Made by a program: the position numbers. Source: an uncultured Nitrospiraceae bacterium (lineage in GTDB: Bacteria > Nitrospirota > Thermodesulfovibrionia > Thermodesulfovibrionales > UBA6898). From it: 64,000 nt of DNA. This document shows, piece after piece, positions 12,001 to 24,000 of this stretch; the stretch's first letter is position 1, and the number at the start of each line of letters is the position of its first letter. The DNA lies in the NCBI GenBank assembly GCA_963811165.1, contig CAWEQH010000001.1, positions 320,001 to 384,000 of the forward strand. The letters are read 5' to 3'.

Positions 12001-15000
12001 CGGCTAAGGTACTCTGCGCCGTAGTTGAATGTGAGGCAGGTCTCAAGGGGGCTTTCACATACTTGTTCGAGTTGTTGGGCCGTATGACGGCACTGGCAGA
12101 GGCCCACGGATATTGCCGAGGCTGAAGAGACGATATGGCTTGCCCGTTCCCAGTCCAGGACTTCGGTAAGATCATTTCCAGGGAGCGCCTCCTCCCGGAC
12201 AAGGGTGCGAAATAATGATGTCTTTCCCTGAAAGATTGTTCTTGAGAACCGGTCATTTTCATGGAAATACTGCTCAAAGAGGAGCGCGAGTTCCTTCATC
12301 GGCATGTCAGGGCGGGCGCGCATGAACGTAAATTCGAAAAAGCCAATAACAACGGGCGCAAGTGTGAAATAGCGTCGTCCATTGTGCTCGATGTCCATCA
12401 CCAGCCCCCTGCGCGCCATATCGGTCAGTCTGCCGTTGAGTTCATCCATCGGCATCTTGAGATCGCGCGATAGCCTTTCAAGCGGGGTGAGGTTATGCGG
12501 CAGCAGGCTGGCGAGGTGGGCATCCTCCGGAGAGGACAGCAGCTCAAGGATCTTCATCAGGGTCGGTGAATCGGGCGCCCCCTGGACCTTCTGTGCCAAA
12601 CGTTTCTGCAGGCGACGATGCTCATGTCCGTCACTTGCGATGTGTCCCATTGTTCACCCCTATTCTTACGGCAGATACTGCATTTTTACCGTCCTCCGTC
12701 TCGATGCGCGGCCAATTGAAGGGCGTTGTACCCGGCATTGAACCCGAATGCCGACTGGAGACCTAAACTTCATGATGGACCCCTAGTCACAGGCTATCAA
12801 AAGGGCCCTGGATTGTCAATCATCTTTGGGACGTTGAGCATAGCCTGGGAAGGGCCCTTTCTTCTCGTGGAGCCGCTCTTCAGCAATGTCCAACAATTCC
12901 TGTAGTGACACCTCTTCTATCTCCCAGGTTTCGGGCTCAAGAGTATTCCGGCGTGAAAAAGACTCCCCGTTGCCGCCCAGCAGAGCCCAAACCGGAACAG
13001 ACGGCCGGGATAAACCGGAATCAATGGCCTGAATACTTCGGAAAATCCCGGGTAGTGTCCTATTTTAATCAGGACGCTACCAAATCCCCCGAGGCGATAA
13101 GAAACATTTATCCGTGTAACAGAAAATTAACATTCCTTTAATAATCCATTAACAGACGGTTTGTTATGCTAACGAGGAGGGAGGCAACCTATGAATATAA
13201 GATACATTATCTGTCCCCATCTTAAAGGCAGTTATGACGGAGCGGTCTGTAGCGGCGTCAACAAGCTGATCAAGAACATAGAAGGCGTCACCATTAAATT
13301 GTGCATGGGCAGGCATTACGAGGTGTGCTCGATATATCGGGAGTCTCTGCTGCCCCAGGAGCCTGTCAGTGCGGTGTAAGAATATAACGCCGCCAGCGGC
13401 ATGAGGGAATATGGAAAAAAAGAAGGTCCTTTTTGTATGCATCCATAACAGTGCCCGCAGCCAGATGGCGGAGGCATTCCTCAATCTTCTGGCAGGGGAC
13501 CGGTTTGAGGCTGAAAGCGCAGGCCTTGCTCCAGGCAGACTAAATCCTTTGGCGGTGGAAGTGATGAAGGAAATAGGGATCGATATCTCTCAGAAAGGAA
13601 CACAGGGCATCTTTGATTTTATCAAGAAGGGGAAACTGTTCCATTATGTGATCACCGTCTGTGACGAGGCGAACGCCGCCCGATGTCCTGTCTTCCCCGG
13701 ATATGCCAGGAGGGTGCACTGGAGTTTCAAGGACCCTTCGAGTCTTGATGGGCCGTACGAGGAGAGATTACGTAAGACAAGGGAAATCCGCGACGAGATA
13801 CGGGCCCGCATAGAAGGGTGGATAAAGGAAGTCAGTTAGGTCTCTTTGCCCTTTTGCTGATTGCCGATGTGCCAATCTTATCGCTTCGCATAATTCAGCT
13901 CAGACCAGCCGGAAAAATTTCATATTTCTTTAACCCAAATGACATCATGCCGTAAAAACCAAAATGATATCCTTTAACCGGATCGTATTTGCGGAAGAAG
14001 GGAACTCATATGGTCACCTATATCATCAAACATCATGTCCCGGGCCGGATAAGACTGGATGTCCCCGCATTGAGAAAAATTGCCGAGCATAGGCTGAAAA
14101 AGATATCGAAGGCCATGACAAGGCTTCCTGTCTTTATGGGGATAAGAGACCTCACGGTGAATCCCGGCAACGGCAGCGTAGCTATTGAATATGACTCCGA
14201 AGTTGTCGACATTATTGATTACCTGGAGGACATGTCAGTTATCGTGGAAACGCTCGATTGTCTGGAAAGACACCGGTGAAGGAGAAAAATATGGCTTGTA
14301 TCGATTATCTGCAGACGGAGGCAAGGTGTTCGAGAGGGATCCCGGTTGCGCATCTTTTCAGGCATTTCTTCTGTGAGTCGAAGCCTGAAAAATGCCCGAT
14401 TGCTTTGTGGAAAGTATCTTCTCGGGAGAAGGATAACAACCACAATCATCTTAAGGAGGAAGCCATGCAATGCCCGCATCTTTTGAAATGGGTGCTATCA
14501 TCTTGCAAAGCCGCGGAGAGACCCTATGTCCCGAGCCTTTTTGAGCTGGAGGAATATTGCAGAACCGGAGAACACAGAAAGTGCCCTTTTTACCTGAGAG
14601 ATATCGTCAGGACCAACACGGCGAGGGTCAAAGTGTCCGCATAACATCTCATGACGCAGTATGTCTGACAATCCCTCTCTGGGGAACCCGCAGCATCGCA
14701 AGGGGCCCGCGTGGACCCTTAAGCGGACCGCGTCTTGAGAGAGTCTCCCCGCCTGAAGGCCGTAAACCCCTTCACGTATCGTTGACCATTGCCGTTAAAT
14801 ATTATCCCAGGCATGAATAAAGTGCCGCGGTTTTGCGGCAGAATTTAATAGGTAGGTAATGAAAGAAGTGTTAGACAATGTGCCGTTTCAGGCGATAGAC
14901 TGATTATATATTAAGAGATTTAAGGAGAGTATTCGTATGGCATTGCTTGATGATGTATTTAAAGGCGGCAACGTGGTAACAGGCTTGGCTATCGGCATCG

Positions 15001-21000: not shown

Positions 21001-24000
21001 TTTAGACGAAATCTTGCGTGAGATACTCTGCCGGTTCTTTCTGCTGTTTTTGTTCGTAGAGTTCAAGATAGATGTCTGAGAACCCGTACTTCTTGCGAAG
21101 ACTCTGTTTCATCTCCTTCACCCCGGCGCGGTCATAGGTCGTCCCGTTTGTTCTAATTCGTACCAGCAAGATAATTTTTTCCGGGGACAGACCCCATATG
21201 TGGAGATCCTTCACGCTGCTTATATCAGGGAAATTCGTATAGATGAATTTTTCAATCTCCGCGGGGTCTATCTTTGCGGGGTTGCCTTCCATGAGGATAT
21301 GCACGCTCTCCTTTACCAGAAAGTAGGTCGGATACGCGACGAGGAGTCCAATGATGACTGCGGTAAGGGGGTCCAGGAAATAGAGGCCCGTGAACTTTAT
21401 GACAATGGAAGAGGTTATGACCCCGACTGACCCCAGTGCATCGTTTGCGATCAGCAATAGCGCGCCTTTAAGGTTGATGTCTGCCGAGTGCCTGTAAAAC
21501 ATGATGAACCCATACGCATTGACTGCAAGTCCTATCACTGCGATTAAGAGTACCTTGTCTGCCTCGAGTGGCTGGGGATGCATGATCTTGCTATACGCGT
21601 CGGCAAAGACATAAAAAAGGAGAAACCCTACCAGTATCCCGTTGAACAGGCCCGAGATCACCTTGGCCCGTTCGTACCCGAATGTCTTGGTTTTGGTAGG
21701 CAGGCGCTTTGCGAGCCGCGCAACATAAAACGCGACGAATTGACCGGTGATATTGATCGCCATGAAAGAGGCATCGGTAACCAGGGCCAGGCTTCGGTAA
21801 TAAAGCCCGCCGAAGAGTTCGACAAAGAAGTATGCAATCGTCAGAAGGAGAACAGTTTTTTGCTGATTACTATCCATGTCTTAACAGTGTTGACAGCCAG
21901 CTTTTCGGAGAGTCTTCCAAATAATGGCCAACGACATCTTTCACAGCCTTACCGAGCGAGATGTACATACTTTAATGCCTCGCTAACACTGTGTCCAACG
22001 ATTAATTCATTACTTGCCTATCCTATAGCAATAAAAGCAGAGGCAATTGGCAACCCGAAGGGCTCTTAACGCTGTGGTATAGTAATAAAAGGCCGGGGAT
22101 ATTCCGTAAAAAAAGGGAAACGAAAGGGAGGTCTTATTGAAATGGACTACTACATCCATTATACGCATGGAAGGATGAGAATACAGACCCCTCATCTTCA
22201 CGAAAATCCCGCCAAGGCGAAAGAACTTGAGGACTTTCTCAAAAAAGTTTCGGGCATACTGTCGGTCGAAACAAATCCCGTTACGGGCAGCGCCCTGTTT
22301 TATTTTGACGAGAAAAAGATAAACTGCGAACAGATAATCTGCATGCTCGAAAAGAACCATTATCTTTGTCTCCTCAAGGCAGAGACGAACGATCAAGTCG
22401 TTAAAAAAACAGCCGAGAAGGTCCTGGGATTTGCCGAGAAGGTCGTTGTCGATTCCCTCGGGGAGGGACCCATTGAGGGTGAATGAAGTGCTATAGATAG
22501 TGGCAACAGGACCGACCAAGAGATGTACCTTAGCATCAGATAAAGCCAATTATATTGCAACGGCCAAAACAAAAGGCGAGATTAAAAGCATAAATCCGGT
22601 CCAAAAAATCCATCTCTCTTTTGCCGATAGATTGCTCCAGTATCTCTCGAGTAAGGAGTTTTCACCCGATTTAACAGCCCCCGCTCTTGAAATGATCCGG
22701 CTCTCGACATAGCTTATTTCTATAGCGCCCATTGCGCACAAACTACTAATTATTATTTCTGCAGTTTTTACCATATTGCCCATCGCCCCCATACAAAATG
22801 ATTGAGGTGCCTTTCTCAGATCGACTCTTCATCATAGGGCCTGCACGCTAAGGGTATCCGGTCTCTTTATGAGTAAAGAATAACAATTTCTCCTATCAAA
22901 GTGAATGCAATCATAGGCAGATAATGAAAAAACAGCAGAGGGTATCTCACATCCTCCGGAGCTTTGGTGATACACTTTAATCCAGAGAACCGATAGGCCA
23001 AATCCTTTCGAGAAGGAGGAGATGAGTCGGGTACTACAAGCAACGTTCCGCAAATTTTCGTAGGATAAGCGATGGCAAGTCGGCCTGGTTACGTATAAAC
23101 ATTTGTTGTGCCTATTACAGGCGGAGGGGTGTAATGAATGCTGAAGCGACCGGTAACGTACATGACGGCCCTTTCCGAAGCCATACCATGACATAGAGAA
23201 GGGCGATTACGGAGCAGTCTTTTCTATTTGCAATGTTCTTTTTTTACTTTTTTTGTAAGGATGAGGGAATCATGGAAGGTGTATGTCCGTATGACAACGA
23301 TGCGGAAGAGAGACAACATGCGAAGGCCATCCAGATGCTCGCAAGAGATTTGGGCGTGCCCGAGAAGAAGATAAGAGAACTTTACGAGGAATTTCTTTGC
23401 AGTATCAAGGGAGGGGCAAGGATAAAGGATTATCTCACTGTTTTGGCGAGTCGTAACGTAAAAGAGGTGATAAGGAGGGGTTCGCTTCAGTAACCGCATC
23501 GAGGCGGAGGGAATTTGTAAGCTGTCTCTTTGGTAGTACCGAGGATCTTATGTCTAGCCGATAGTTCCCACTGTGTGAATTCAAGCCAGTCAGTTCATCC
23601 CGGCTGATTCCATTCGCGTTTTTTCCGCAGTACGTACAATTTCACGGAATTTTAATTCAATCGTAATGATAGGGTAATTTGAGAATTGTACAATGCAGTA
23701 TCGATTCAAATTTTTTTTCCGAGGGAACCAAAATGGAGGATAAGGGAAAGGAGGAGATGGCAATGAATGTGGACCTGCATGATGTAATACAGCAGCTTGC
23801 ATGCGAACTCTATGTGAAAAGCGGAAAGGCTGAGGGTCGTGATCTTAACAACTGGATCGAGGCGGAATGGATTATCACAAATCGCTTCGCGCGTACCGAA
23901 GATCTCAACAATATCTTCGCAGAAGTGGCGGGGTGATTAAGGTCGGCACTCTGGTGGGCATGAGTATAGTGACCACAGGGAAAGCTCAAGGCTGAGCCGT

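Follow-up and report, generated by a model that had tools for sequence, protein, structure and literature searches.

A conserved operon of a Ca2+-type pump and a MetK-derived protein, preceded by Pho-box-like repeats, in an uncultured Nitrospiraceae bacterium

Introduction

Why should a gene resembling that of a SAM synthetase overlap the gene of a cation pump? The question is raised by a locus in a 64-kb stretch of DNA (the window) from an uncultured Nitrospiraceae bacterium (GCA_963811165.1, contig CAWEQH010000001.1); coordinates are window positions unless a contig or another locus is named. An earlier note had described here a multi-phylum operon of fixed gene order, encoding a DUF5132 protein, HMA_2 proteins, a Ca-type P-ATPase and a dedicated SAM synthetase, and had assigned it to a membrane cation system rather than to central metabolism. 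Its equation of Pfam HMA_2 with CoBaHMA is made explicitly in a passage of Bruley et al. (bioRxiv 10.1101/2024.07.07.602159). Taking the MetK paralogue as query, we collected 80 related loci from Nitrospirota, Thermodesulfobacteriota, Nostocales and others, including 37 cyanobacterial carriers (mostly Nostocales, 4 Coleofasciculus). DUF5132, hairpin and repeat-protein genes were counted over the 67 loci in which 1500 nt or more precede the pump gene.

Results

All previously listed genes were recovered on the plus strand by a gene and Pfam reading of the window. The transcription unit probably starts with a 62-aa Cys-rich ORF (13191-13379, plus strand), which has an upstream Shine-Dalgarno sequence, no Pfam family, and relatives in 8 of the 80 loci (47-92% identity, tblastn). 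It is followed on the same strand by an accessory ArsC-type low-molecular-weight phosphatase (13411-13839; PF01451, 64.4 bits), found by tblastn in 6/80 loci and missing from the closest relative, L001. A single-domain CoBaHMA protein with an N-terminal His-x-GRxR motif (14010-14279, plus; PF19991, 36.4 bits) comes next, together with a second Cys-rich ORF (14258-14644, plus; no Pfam family); conservation of the latter in other loci is confined to its last ~60 aa, encoded from about 14462 on (tblastn matches span query residues 53-118). These genes precede the P-type ATPase of 1019 aa (16535-19594, plus) and the MetK-derived protein, which we refer to as MetKp (19591-20802, plus). Just 3' of the latter, a consensus scan picked out a terminator-like hairpin followed by a T-run (20875-20894, plus).

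The pump gene and the MetK-derived gene are tightly or translationally coupled. The stop of the former overlaps the start of the latter by 4 nt (ATGA), as had been noted, and the same overlap occurs in 27 of 78 loci, the largest gap being at most 295 nt. A full-length P2A ATPase gene lies directly 5' of the paralogue in 78/80 loci; of the two exceptions, L052 ends at a contig edge and L067 lacks the pump. The two proteins co-vary in their identity to the window's versions (r = 0.76, n = 74). This reverse search bears out the synteny claim and supports a conserved multi-phylum operon of a membrane cation pump, outside central metabolism. The fixed order DUF5132, HMA_2-TM, HMA_2::ATPase, MetK holds for its last two members; DUF5132 is present in 50/67 loci and the hairpin in 51/67.

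With regard to the pump, alignment to Listeria LMCA1 (E = 1e-145) upholds its assignment to the P2 class, as a P2A enzyme. It has the full domain set of P2A Ca2+-ATPases (LMCA1, 6zhf/9euq; SPCA1; SERCA), with DKTGT, PEGL and its Glu, and the TM6 Asn and Asp retained. TM5 carries Asn and Glu, the latter in place of an Ala in LMCA1, and TM8 has Gln where LMCA1 has Arg. The top NCBIfam models are Ca-ATPases, yet the score of 624.8 falls below the equivalog cut-off of 798.3. From the alignment we infer specificity for Ca2+ or a similar divalent cation. In contrast to known P2A Ca2+-ATPases, the pump has about 130 extra N-terminal residues, including a CoBaHMA domain (residues 1-80). The Pfam match of this head, 26.5 bits, is under the cut-off of 30; its identity as an HMA_2-like domain is nevertheless supported by the signature His-x(3-5)-GRxR, found in 71/71 pumps with an intact N-terminus, and by an HMA-fold model. 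H6, G11, R12 and R14 are invariant in 39/39 aligned sequences. The AlphaFold2 model of residues 1-80 (pLDDT 93-97) superposes on the metal-binding domains of CopZ, MerP and ATP7B at 1.2-2.0 Å over about 62 columns, and displays an HMA fold with an extra beta0 strand and no cysteine. A P2A (Ca2+-type) ATPase, whose CoBaHMA head is cytosolic and free of cysteine, forms the invariant core of the operon together with its MetK-derived partner.

MetKp shares the three-domain fold of canonical MetK/MAT (TIGR01034; PDB 7r3b, 5h9u, 1fug), and its TIGR01034 score of 373.7 is above the cut-off of 309.4. The paralogues are conserved at 59-96% and form a single clade (quick tree, SH-aLRT 100) separate from canonical MetKs, to which, when compared within a genome, they are 43-51% identical. 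Comparison of 79 paralogues with 6 canonical MetKs revealed that the residues serving ATP and triphosphate (His, Asp, Lys and Arg) are kept: GHPDK, PDGK, GRK, SGK and the Asp of DR are present in 76-79/79. In contrast, the methionine-binding Asp and Glu are replaced, by His in 79/79 and Arg in 65/79, respectively, and the gating-loop Gln has given way to Leu or Val. The GAGDQG motif is also lost; its Asp is Asn in 64/79 and is still Asp in nine. The gating loop is longer, and a 7-residue insert lies near the C-terminus. According to passages of PMC6850014, the corresponding Glu, Gln and Asp of human MAT2A hold methionine, and the Asp258Gly variant loses SAM synthesis while retaining phosphatase activity. 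Judged from the alignment, MetKp has kept its adenine-stacking and triphosphate residues, and an acidic/polar methionine pocket has become basic/apolar. The description as a dedicated SAM synthetase does not stand, as the replaced methionine pocket of the 79 paralogues speaks against it. The other two enzymes mentioned in the earlier note were located: a canonical metK at C4:21467, directly 5' of ahcY (C4:22713-23942), and an archaeal-type MAT at C10:5032-6213. A canonical MetK was also present in 5/5 genomes tested.

The accessory proteins are more variable. The DUF5132 protein (14937-15230, plus; PF17195, 58.5 bits) has a hydrophobic N-terminal segment with GxxxG, a motif found in 27/27 non-cyanobacterial orthologues versus 0/23 cyanobacterial ones. 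The next gene, starting at 15223 (GTG) or 15259 (ATG) and ending at 15708 (plus), encodes a CoBaHMA domain with a C-terminal two-helix membrane hairpin (PF19991, 44.7 bits, profile positions 10-153). The hairpin is encoded by a separate HMA_2-TM gene in 28 loci and is fused to DUF5132 in 23, all cyanobacterial, and some Nostocales have the pump and MetK-like gene alone, without hairpin or DUF5132 genes. The 227-aa Gly/Val/Ala-rich protein (15839-16522, plus; no Pfam or NCBIfam family) comprises about eight 22-residue repeats (similarity 0.56 at lags 22 and 44) and a basic Lys/Pro/Ala tail. It was found in 21/67 loci with 31-92% identity (62-92% in 20 of the 21) and matched only hypothetical clusters in the Atlas; its AF2 model is all helix, but with a pLDDT of 54.6.

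Downstream, the accessory CDF transporter (21002-21877, minus strand; PF01545, 128.7 bits) has three of four canonical metal ligands replaced, as judged by alignment to ZnT4 and ZnT7, and adjoins the operon in just one other locus of the 80, L005. In many loci, tblastn places relatives of the soluble CoBaHMA protein (22142-22486, plus; PF19991, 57.2 bits) close to the operon, and the DUF3562 protein (23233-23493, plus; PF12085, 52.9 bits) is a frequent neighbour 3' of the MetK-like gene (18/80, tblastn). The whole genome holds five HMA_2 matches. The fifth (32565-32933) forms a distal minus-strand pair with a Zn-ribbon protein (32930-33232), the pair spanning 32565-33232; in other genomes the pair adjoins the core operon. 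Zn-ribbon relatives occur in 15/80 loci and relatives of the fifth HMA_2 protein in 28/80, and a locus has three to six CoBaHMA proteins.

Beyond the stretch covered by the earlier note, the window contains further parts of the module and its apparent phosphate-starvation wiring. Upstream of the operon (13115-13154, plus), four TGTAACA-like heptamers are arranged with an exact 11-bp period. The heptamer was defined from the genome's own pstS region, where the reference array (33631-33670, plus) precedes a pstS-like gene (33714-34724), and the name Pho box is given by analogy. A further four-unit array (33255-33294, minus) lies upstream of the Zn-ribbon/CoBaHMA pair. Throughout the 3.66-Mb genome, such arrays were found at only four sites, namely pstS, phoH, the operon and this pair, compared with 0-1 in shuffled genomes. 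The related loci contain 46 arrays in 1.40 Mb, versus 0 in each of five shuffles. The array at 13115 has an orthologue in L001 at 3967; arrays lie just 5' of the first operon gene in L047, L050, L064, L065 and L069, and that of the Zn-ribbon/CoBaHMA pair is conserved at the corresponding position in L002, L005, L008-L013 and L071. PhoH-like, PstS-like and purple-acid-phosphatase-like genes are also found in the window. In this genome, the operon stands behind the same DNA signal, a putative Pho box, as phosphate-starvation genes. A cyanobacterial Pho-box consensus was found 5' of the module in 0/37 cyanobacterial loci, and PhoH and PstS lie near the operon in 5/80 and 3/80 loci, respectively, so Pho control may be lineage-specific.

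Discussion

We propose, with a probability of about 0.5, that the operon is a horizontally mobile, phosphate-starvation-controlled module comprising a pump, membrane-organising proteins and a MetK-like partner that is not a SAM synthetase. Under phosphate scarcity, the pump would export Ca2+ or a similar divalent cation from the cytosol. In Nitrospirota and Thermodesulfobacteriota, the core is joined by the GxxxG-bearing DUF5132 protein, the CoBaHMA-hairpin protein and the helical 22-mer-repeat protein, and further partners there are CoBaHMA proteins of the soluble kind, Zn-ribbon proteins and small Cys proteins. Together with the basic CoBaHMA domains, the small proteins bearing the hairpin or GxxxG may organise or target the membrane of the pump, as FezA and FezC do for the ferrosome pump, and the outcome may be a storage compartment for the cation (and phosphate). 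MetKp would handle ATP or triphosphate in partnership with the pump, be it as an enzyme that uses a new and probably anionic co-substrate or as a dedicated tripolyphosphatase or ATP sensor.

The operon parallels the ferrosome fezABC clusters, with a Ca-type pump; the parallel is one of gene architecture, drawn from descriptions of the Fez proteins. In the relevant passages of Grant et al. (bioRxiv 10.1101/2020.01.10.902569), the ATPase FezB carries an N-terminal RxR motif, FezC consists of an N-terminal HMA domain and two TM helices, and FezA is a small hydrophobic protein with GxxxG. Further soluble proteins with the same Arg-rich motif and an occurrence mostly in anaerobes add to the likeness. 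Nevertheless, the window pump is P2A, with PEGL and Ca-type residues, whereas fez pumps belong to P1B-6 and carry D[Y/F]SCA and HNxxT; the setting is one of phosphate starvation instead of iron homeostasis, and the MetK-derived gene and the repeat protein are additions. Another similar locus is the one that contains ccyA (calcyanin) in Microcystis aeruginosa PCC 7806, where DUF5132, CoBaHMA-hairpin and single-domain CoBaHMA proteins stand beside a Ca transporter. There, the transporter is a Ca2+/H+ exchanger (cax) rather than a P-type ATPase, a MetK-like gene is absent, and the passages of Bruley et al. cited above report no Pho link.

It is somewhat unlikely, although worth serious consideration, that the pump, turned on under phosphate scarcity, simply expels Ca2+ (or Mn2+) across the cytoplasmic membrane, for instance so as to handle cations released from polyphosphate or dissolving Ca-phosphates, with the small proteins as regulators or chaperones and no compartment. 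The nearest solved relatives, LMCA1 and SPCA1, are efflux pumps, the Nostocales with only the core genes would fit, and the Pho arrays are accommodated. This leaves unexplained why a locus should have so many CoBaHMA proteins, as well as hairpin and GxxxG proteins and the well-conserved repeat protein, and the accessory proteins mirror FezA, FezC and the ccyA neighbourhood as these are described in the passages cited. That the operon serves intracellular amorphous calcium carbonate (iACC) as part of a calcyanin-type machinery is extremely improbable: DUF5132 and CoBaHMA-hairpin genes are described as flanking ccyA and cax in Microcystis and being co-expressed with them, but none of the 37 cyanobacterial carriers belongs to a genus named as an iACC former in the portions of the calcyanin/iACC literature consulted, and regulation here indicates phosphate, not carbonate.

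For MetKp, a non-catalytic pseudoenzyme that gates the pump by binding ATP, adenosine or triphosphate would agree with the lost substrate pocket, the retained nucleotide and triphosphate residues and the strict coupling to the pump gene. We nonetheless find it doubtful, as the conserved catalytic His/Lys/Asp set and the conserved new His and Arg suggest an active site that was rebuilt, not relaxed. A working SAM synthetase supplying SAM locally to the membrane system, e.g. for methylation or phosphorus-free lipid synthesis, is very unlikely. The TIGR01034 score, the three intact MAT domains, the family conservation and the nine sequences with Asp in GAGDQG speak for it; however, the residues reported to hold methionine in MAT2A are replaced in a conserved manner, and a canonical metK and an archaeal-type MAT are already available elsewhere in the genome.

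A phosphate-starvation module for cation handling, or a storage compartment, is our best guess at the overall function of the operon. The gene set itself, a Ca-type pump with small membrane proteins and a MetK look-alike, is real, widespread among bacteria and undescribed, and the four-unit array that ties it to pstS and phoH is new.

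Gene content and synteny of the operon

The cluster at 14010-22486 comprises, in order on the + strand, a single-domain HMA_2 protein (14010-14279), a Cys-rich ORF (14258-14644), a DUF5132 protein (14937-15230), an HMA_2 protein with a C-terminal two-helix hairpin (15223-15708), a 227-aa repeat protein (15839-16522), a 1019-aa P-type ATPase (16535-19594) and a MetK homologue (19591-20802). These are followed by a CDF transporter on the - strand (21002-21877) and then by another HMA_2 protein on the + strand. The ATPase stop and the ATG of the MetK homologue overlap in the sequence ATGA. 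In the same genome, the canonical metK immediately precedes ahcY on contig 4, and an archaeal-type MAT is encoded on contig 10. All these genes were found as described in an earlier note, whose observation therefore stands.

Eighty related loci from other genomes were fetched starting from the MetK paralogue, and a full-length relative of the pump was found directly upstream of it in 78 of these 80. The two exceptions are L052, which is cut 82 nt upstream, and L067, which is pump-free within approximately 5 kb and in which HMA_2 and DUF5132 genes adjoin the paralogue. A 4-nt overlap joins pump and paralogue in 27 of the 78 loci, and no gap between them is larger than 295 nt. For 67 loci the sequence extends at least 1500 nt upstream of the pump; in this set, iterated profile searches recovered the repeat protein in 21, DUF5132 in 50 and the hairpin in 51. 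A single fused gene encodes DUF5132 together with the hairpin in 23 cyanobacterial loci, and reduced loci such as L036 contain the pump and the MetK-like gene alone. The order DUF5132, hairpin protein, pump and MetK, previously regarded as a conserved core across phyla, holds in anaerobes and not as a universal order; the invariant core is the pump/MetK-like pair.

With regard to the accessory proteins, DUF5132 carries a GxxxG motif in 27/27 non-cyanobacterial proteins versus 0/23 cyanobacterial ones. The 227-aa repeat protein has a 22-residue period and is without a family in Pfam and NCBIfam, with unnamed clusters as the only matches in the Atlas; its AlphaFold2 model (pLDDT 54.6) is under the level usable for a fold search. 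Paralogy of the small Cys-rich ORFs at 13191-13379 and 14462-14641 is not supported (BLASTP E = 2.3), the two having in common only a CPHL start and a similar Cys spacing. In the CDF transporter, the TM2 His, TM2 Asp and TM5 His of the ZnT4/ZnT7 metal site are replaced by Phe, Asn and Leu, respectively, and the TM5 Asp is the only ligand retained; judging from these residues, the protein may carry another cation or none. Genes for a DUF3562 protein, a DUF2934 protein and a CBM48 (glycogen-binding) protein lie after the cluster (23233-24547, + strand). In many loci DUF3562 comes directly after the MetK-like gene, and in L001 and L005 the repeat protein has a second copy that adjoins DUF3562.

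The MetK-like protein

The MetK-like protein contains the Pfam MAT N, M and C domains and scores 373.7 against TIGR01034 (cut-off 309.4). We aligned 79 paralogues with solved MATs and with six canonical MetKs from carrier genomes. The catalytic and triphosphate-binding set (His, Asp, Lys, Arg) is retained in the paralogues: GHPDK is present in 79/79, the Asp and Lys of PDGK in 78/79 (D168) and 76/79 (K170), the Arg and Lys of GRK in 78/79 (R256) and 79/79 (K257), and both the SGK lysine (K277) and the DR aspartate (D283) in 79/79, with one Lys of the set replaced by Arg in all 79. The GAGDQG signature is absent, (T/P)V(K/R/T/N)NQ(A/V) being found in its place; its Asp position is occupied by Asn in 64/79 and by Asp in only 9/79. 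Furthermore, Arg replaces the G-G-E-I Glu in 65/79, Leu (61/79) or Val replaces the Gln of the gating loop, and His replaces the Asp of the G-D-x-G-L-T-G-R-K segment in 79/79. The replacements are conserved, and the paralogue is therefore under selection rather than decaying.

According to a study of human MAT2A, the main chain of methionine is held by Glu70, Gln113 and Asp258, and the patient variant Asp258Gly has lost SAM formation and retained phosphatase activity (PMC6850014). The human numbering of Asp258 agrees with the GD(A/S/T)G motif. The methionine-binding trio (MAT2A Glu70, Gln113, Asp258) is replaced in the paralogues, Glu70 and Gln113 being taken to correspond to the G-G-E-I Glu and the gating-loop Gln. 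The canonical MetKs have Glu, Gln and Asp at the methionine positions in 6/6 cases, and a canonical MetK is also present in 5/5 carrier genomes tested. Judged by its residues, the MetK homologue is no ordinary SAM synthetase; the gene is labelled methionine adenosyltransferase in databases, yet it almost certainly does not encode one. The earlier note's reading of a dedicated SAM synthetase does not agree with the replacement of the methionine-handling positions across 79 sequences.

A complex prediction for two copies of the MetK-like protein and pump residues 1-80, with alignments as input, gave a score of 0.01, which weighs neither way. In L026, from Cylindrospermum sp. NIES-4074, the MetK-like gene (10001-11200) contains an in-frame TAA and may be a pseudogene or reflect a sequencing error.

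Phylogeny and distribution

In a maximum-likelihood tree obtained by a quick rather than a careful search, the 79 paralogues are split from the six canonical MetKs with an SH-aLRT of 100. The canonical MetKs cluster by organism, the paralogues of Nitrospirota and Thermodesulfobacteriota are intermixed, and 37 cyanobacterial paralogues form one nested clade. The paralogue of the window is 68-74% identical to the cyanobacterial paralogues, compared with 54-55% for the housekeeping enzyme. In Nostoc sp. NIES-4103 (L031), the pump/MetK-like pair is located on the 170-kb plasmid1. The paralogue signature was found in 55 of the 401 genomes and 35 of the 162 genera of a phylum sample, with no control hits, and in none of 14 further genomes from the family to which the window belongs; many Nostocales also carry the gene. 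Together, the tree pattern, the cross-phylum identities, the plasmid copy and the distribution point to horizontal spread of the module.

The pump and its CoBaHMA head

The pump displays the full P2 domain set in Pfam (E1-E2_ATPase, 184 bits; Cation_ATPase_C, 152 bits; Cation_ATPase_N, 48 bits) and a P2A core with DKTGT, A, N and P domains and 10 TM helices. The top NCBIfam models are Ca-ATPases of the PMR1, SERCA and PMCA types, each under its equivalog cut-off (624.8 vs 798.3 for the PMR1 type and 551.1 vs 703.4 for the SERCA type). The nearest solved relative is Listeria LMCA1 (E = 1e-145). On the LMCA1 alignment, DKTGT, the TM4 PEGL Glu and the TM6 Asn/Asp are retained. The PEGL Glu and the TM6 Asn/Asp, whose Ca-site roles come from work on SERCA and LMCA1, are also seen in the pump of the reduced locus L036. 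TM5 contains Asn and Glu (Asn and Ala in LMCA1), and TM8 contains Gln (Arg in LMCA1). If SERCA is taken as the guide, Ca site II is presumably complete and site I retained in part. By its residues the pump is of the Ca2+ type, and Ca2+ is its putative substrate.

The first 80 residues of the pump form an HMA-like domain without Cys, which AlphaFold2 modelled with a pLDDT of 93-97. Foldseek superposed this model on the metal-binding domains of CopZ, MerP and ATP7B at 1.2-2.0 A, indicating an HMA/ferredoxin-like fold lacking the CxxC metal site. An additional N-terminal strand at residues 2-6 precedes beta1 and includes H6. Residues H6, G11, R12 and R14 are invariant (39/39 orthologues), and K27 shows at least 90% conservation, in line with conserved basic residues on beta1 and probably beta2. 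Every one of the 71 pumps whose N-terminus is intact bears the pattern H-x(3-5)-GRxR. These features match the published description of CoBaHMA, in which an extra N-terminal strand beta0 bears a conserved His (PMC8890360). Binding of anionic lipids by CoBaHMA domains has also been proposed in the literature. The equation of Pfam HMA_2 (PF19991) with CoBaHMA, previously made from motif and basic residues, is stated by Bruley et al. (bioRxiv 10.1101/2024.07.07.602159). Against the PF19991 gathering cut-off of 30 bits, the four stand-alone HMA_2 proteins score 36.4-57.2 bits and the pump head scores 26.5, which is below the cut-off; orthologous pump heads reach 32.0 (L042) and 34.2 (L065).

Heptamer arrays and phosphate-related neighbours

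The window also encodes a PhoH-like protein, an OmpR-type response regulator, a purple-acid-phosphatase-like protein and a PstS-like protein followed by pstCAB fragments. Upstream of pstS are four TGTAACA-like heptamers with an exact 11-bp period. Scanning the whole 3.66 Mb genome for four units, with at most 7 mismatches in 28 positions and a unit derived from this genome's own pstS, gave four sites, every one inside the window: at pstS, at phoH, at 13115-13154 and at 33255-33294; shuffled genomes gave 1, 0 and 1. Downstream of the 13115 array lie a Cys-rich ORF of 62 aa that has a ribosome-binding site, an ArsC-type gene and then the CoBaHMA operon. The 33255 array is followed on the - strand by a Zn-ribbon gene (32930-33232) and a fifth HMA_2 gene (32565-32933), a pair which adjoins the core operon in other genomes (Zn-ribbon in 15/80 loci). 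Across the 80 related loci (1.40 Mb), 46 arrays were found versus 0 in each of five shuffles; in loci of Magnetominusculus and Thermodesulfobacteriota, several of these arrays lie just 5' of the gene that opens the operon.

Pho boxes have the architecture established in E. coli and Bacillus. The operon has tandem 7-bp direct repeats with an 11-bp period in common with pstS, and by analogy we infer that the heptamer array is a candidate PhoB site. PhoH genes occur near the operon in only 5/80 loci and PstS in 3/80. A cyanobacterial Pho box (consensus of three units, at most 2 mismatches) was found upstream of the module in 0/37 loci, with 1 match in 743 kb. In the inner intergenic regions of the operon, there were no pairs of 8-mers approximately 11 bp apart. 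A two-unit TGTAACA-like scan gave 16 matches in the window versus 5.6 expected, and is too noisy alone. Among RNA runs, none was listed as covering 13100-20900.

Several other neighbours were observed. The pstC/pstA/pstB-like ORFs (34925-37332, + strand) are short (192, 168 and 115 aa) and match BPD_transp_1/ABC_tran only in part, which could reflect frameshifts, decay or assembly errors in a phosphate transporter. Upstream of the operon (6809-10201, + strand) are genes for a GH1 glycosidase, a PHP-domain protein and a GT21 glycosyltransferase. Of these, PHP and GT21 are again found close to the operon in L001, L010 and L068, and GH1 in L068 alone. These genes may serve lipid or glycan remodelling during phosphate limitation. 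The interval separating the phosphatase-like gene from the distal CoBaHMA pair contains genes for a radical-SAM protein and a 462-aa HupE/UreJ_2 membrane protein, along with two family-less ORFs (29230-32464, + strand); relatives of these occur in 0/80 loci.

Discussion

Among the papers found on CoBaHMA, DUF5132 and PF19991, none describes the operon or the MetK-like family, and the matches listed for methionine adenosyltransferase paralogs, P-type ATPases and phosphate starvation were all unrelated and did not describe the operon. The abstract of the CoBaHMA family paper of Gaschignard et al. (Proteins, 2024) reportedly mentions CoBaHMA fusions to membrane transport proteins.

Two known systems resemble the operon. 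In the ferrosome preprint (bioRxiv 10.1101/2020.01.10.902569), FezA is described as a hydrophobic GxxxG protein, FezB a P1B-6 ATPase with an N-terminal RxR motif that is also found on related P1B ATPases, and FezC an N-terminal HMA domain followed by two TM helices. Compared by these descriptions and not by sequences, the operon fills the same three roles around a P2A pump, and the protein at 15223-15708 has the FezC architecture. The pumps differ, that of the operon being P2A with PEGL and lacking the D[Y/F]SCA and HNxxT of P1B-6 FezB. As to the FezA-like and Arg-rich features, GxxxG is confined to non-cyanobacterial DUF5132 and GRxR is present on 71/71 pumps. In L076 (9425-12439), approximately 3 kb downstream of the operon, lies a CPC-type P1B ATPase with an N-terminal HMA_2 match (28.1 bits), and an MntP-like gene comes after it. 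One locus thus has CoBaHMA heads on P-type ATPases of two classes, which fits the idea that the "R-rich motif" and CoBaHMA beta1 may be the same thing. The Microcystis ccyA neighbourhood (bioRxiv 10.1101/2024.07.07.602159) likewise has DUF5132 and CoBaHMA-hairpin genes, there beside a Ca2+/H+ exchanger. As described in these two preprints, the ferrosome and ccyA systems differ from the operon in having neither a MetK-like gene nor a reported Pho link.

The descriptive results are near certain: the gene set with its conservation and mobility, the pump's Ca-type residues and CoBaHMA signature, the rebuilt pocket of the MAT fold and the common upstream arrays. We propose that, upon phosphate limitation, the cell would make a pump that clears the cytosol of Ca2+ or a similar cation. 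Organising the membrane of the pump, possibly as a storage compartment, would be the task of the hairpin and GxxxG proteins together with the basic CoBaHMA domains. The MetK-derived protein would use a new co-substrate in handling ATP or triphosphate, or would serve the pump as a tripolyphosphatase or a sensor. We give this package of a phosphate-limitation cation pump, membrane organisers and a triphosphate-handling MetK-like partner a probability of about 0.5; the compartment, taken alone, appears unlikely. A more specific version, which we consider equally doubtful, is a ferrosome-like Ca/phosphate compartment induced by phosphate starvation and loaded by the pump with a divalent cation, a store analogous to acidocalcisomes. 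The MetK-derived protein would then be a new MAT-fold enzyme applying the triphosphate chemistry of ATP to a substrate other than methionine, probably an anionic one, or, just as tentatively, would release and hydrolyse triphosphate for the store.

With regard to annotation, approximately one in seven sampled genomes of the phylum carries a gene almost certainly mislabelled as methionine adenosyltransferase. For enzymology, the family is a natural example of a MAT fold rebuilt with its triphosphate site left intact. The MetK-like protein is strictly paired with a Ca-type pump bearing a CoBaHMA head, and with FezA/FezC-like proteins, and this pairing joins three so far separate lines of research: ferrosomes, the calcyanin/CoBaHMA neighbourhood of carbonate-forming cyanobacteria, and the phosphate-starvation response. 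The minimal two- or three-gene form in culturable Nostoc/Anabaena provides a system in which the roles of CoBaHMA and DUF5132 can be probed.
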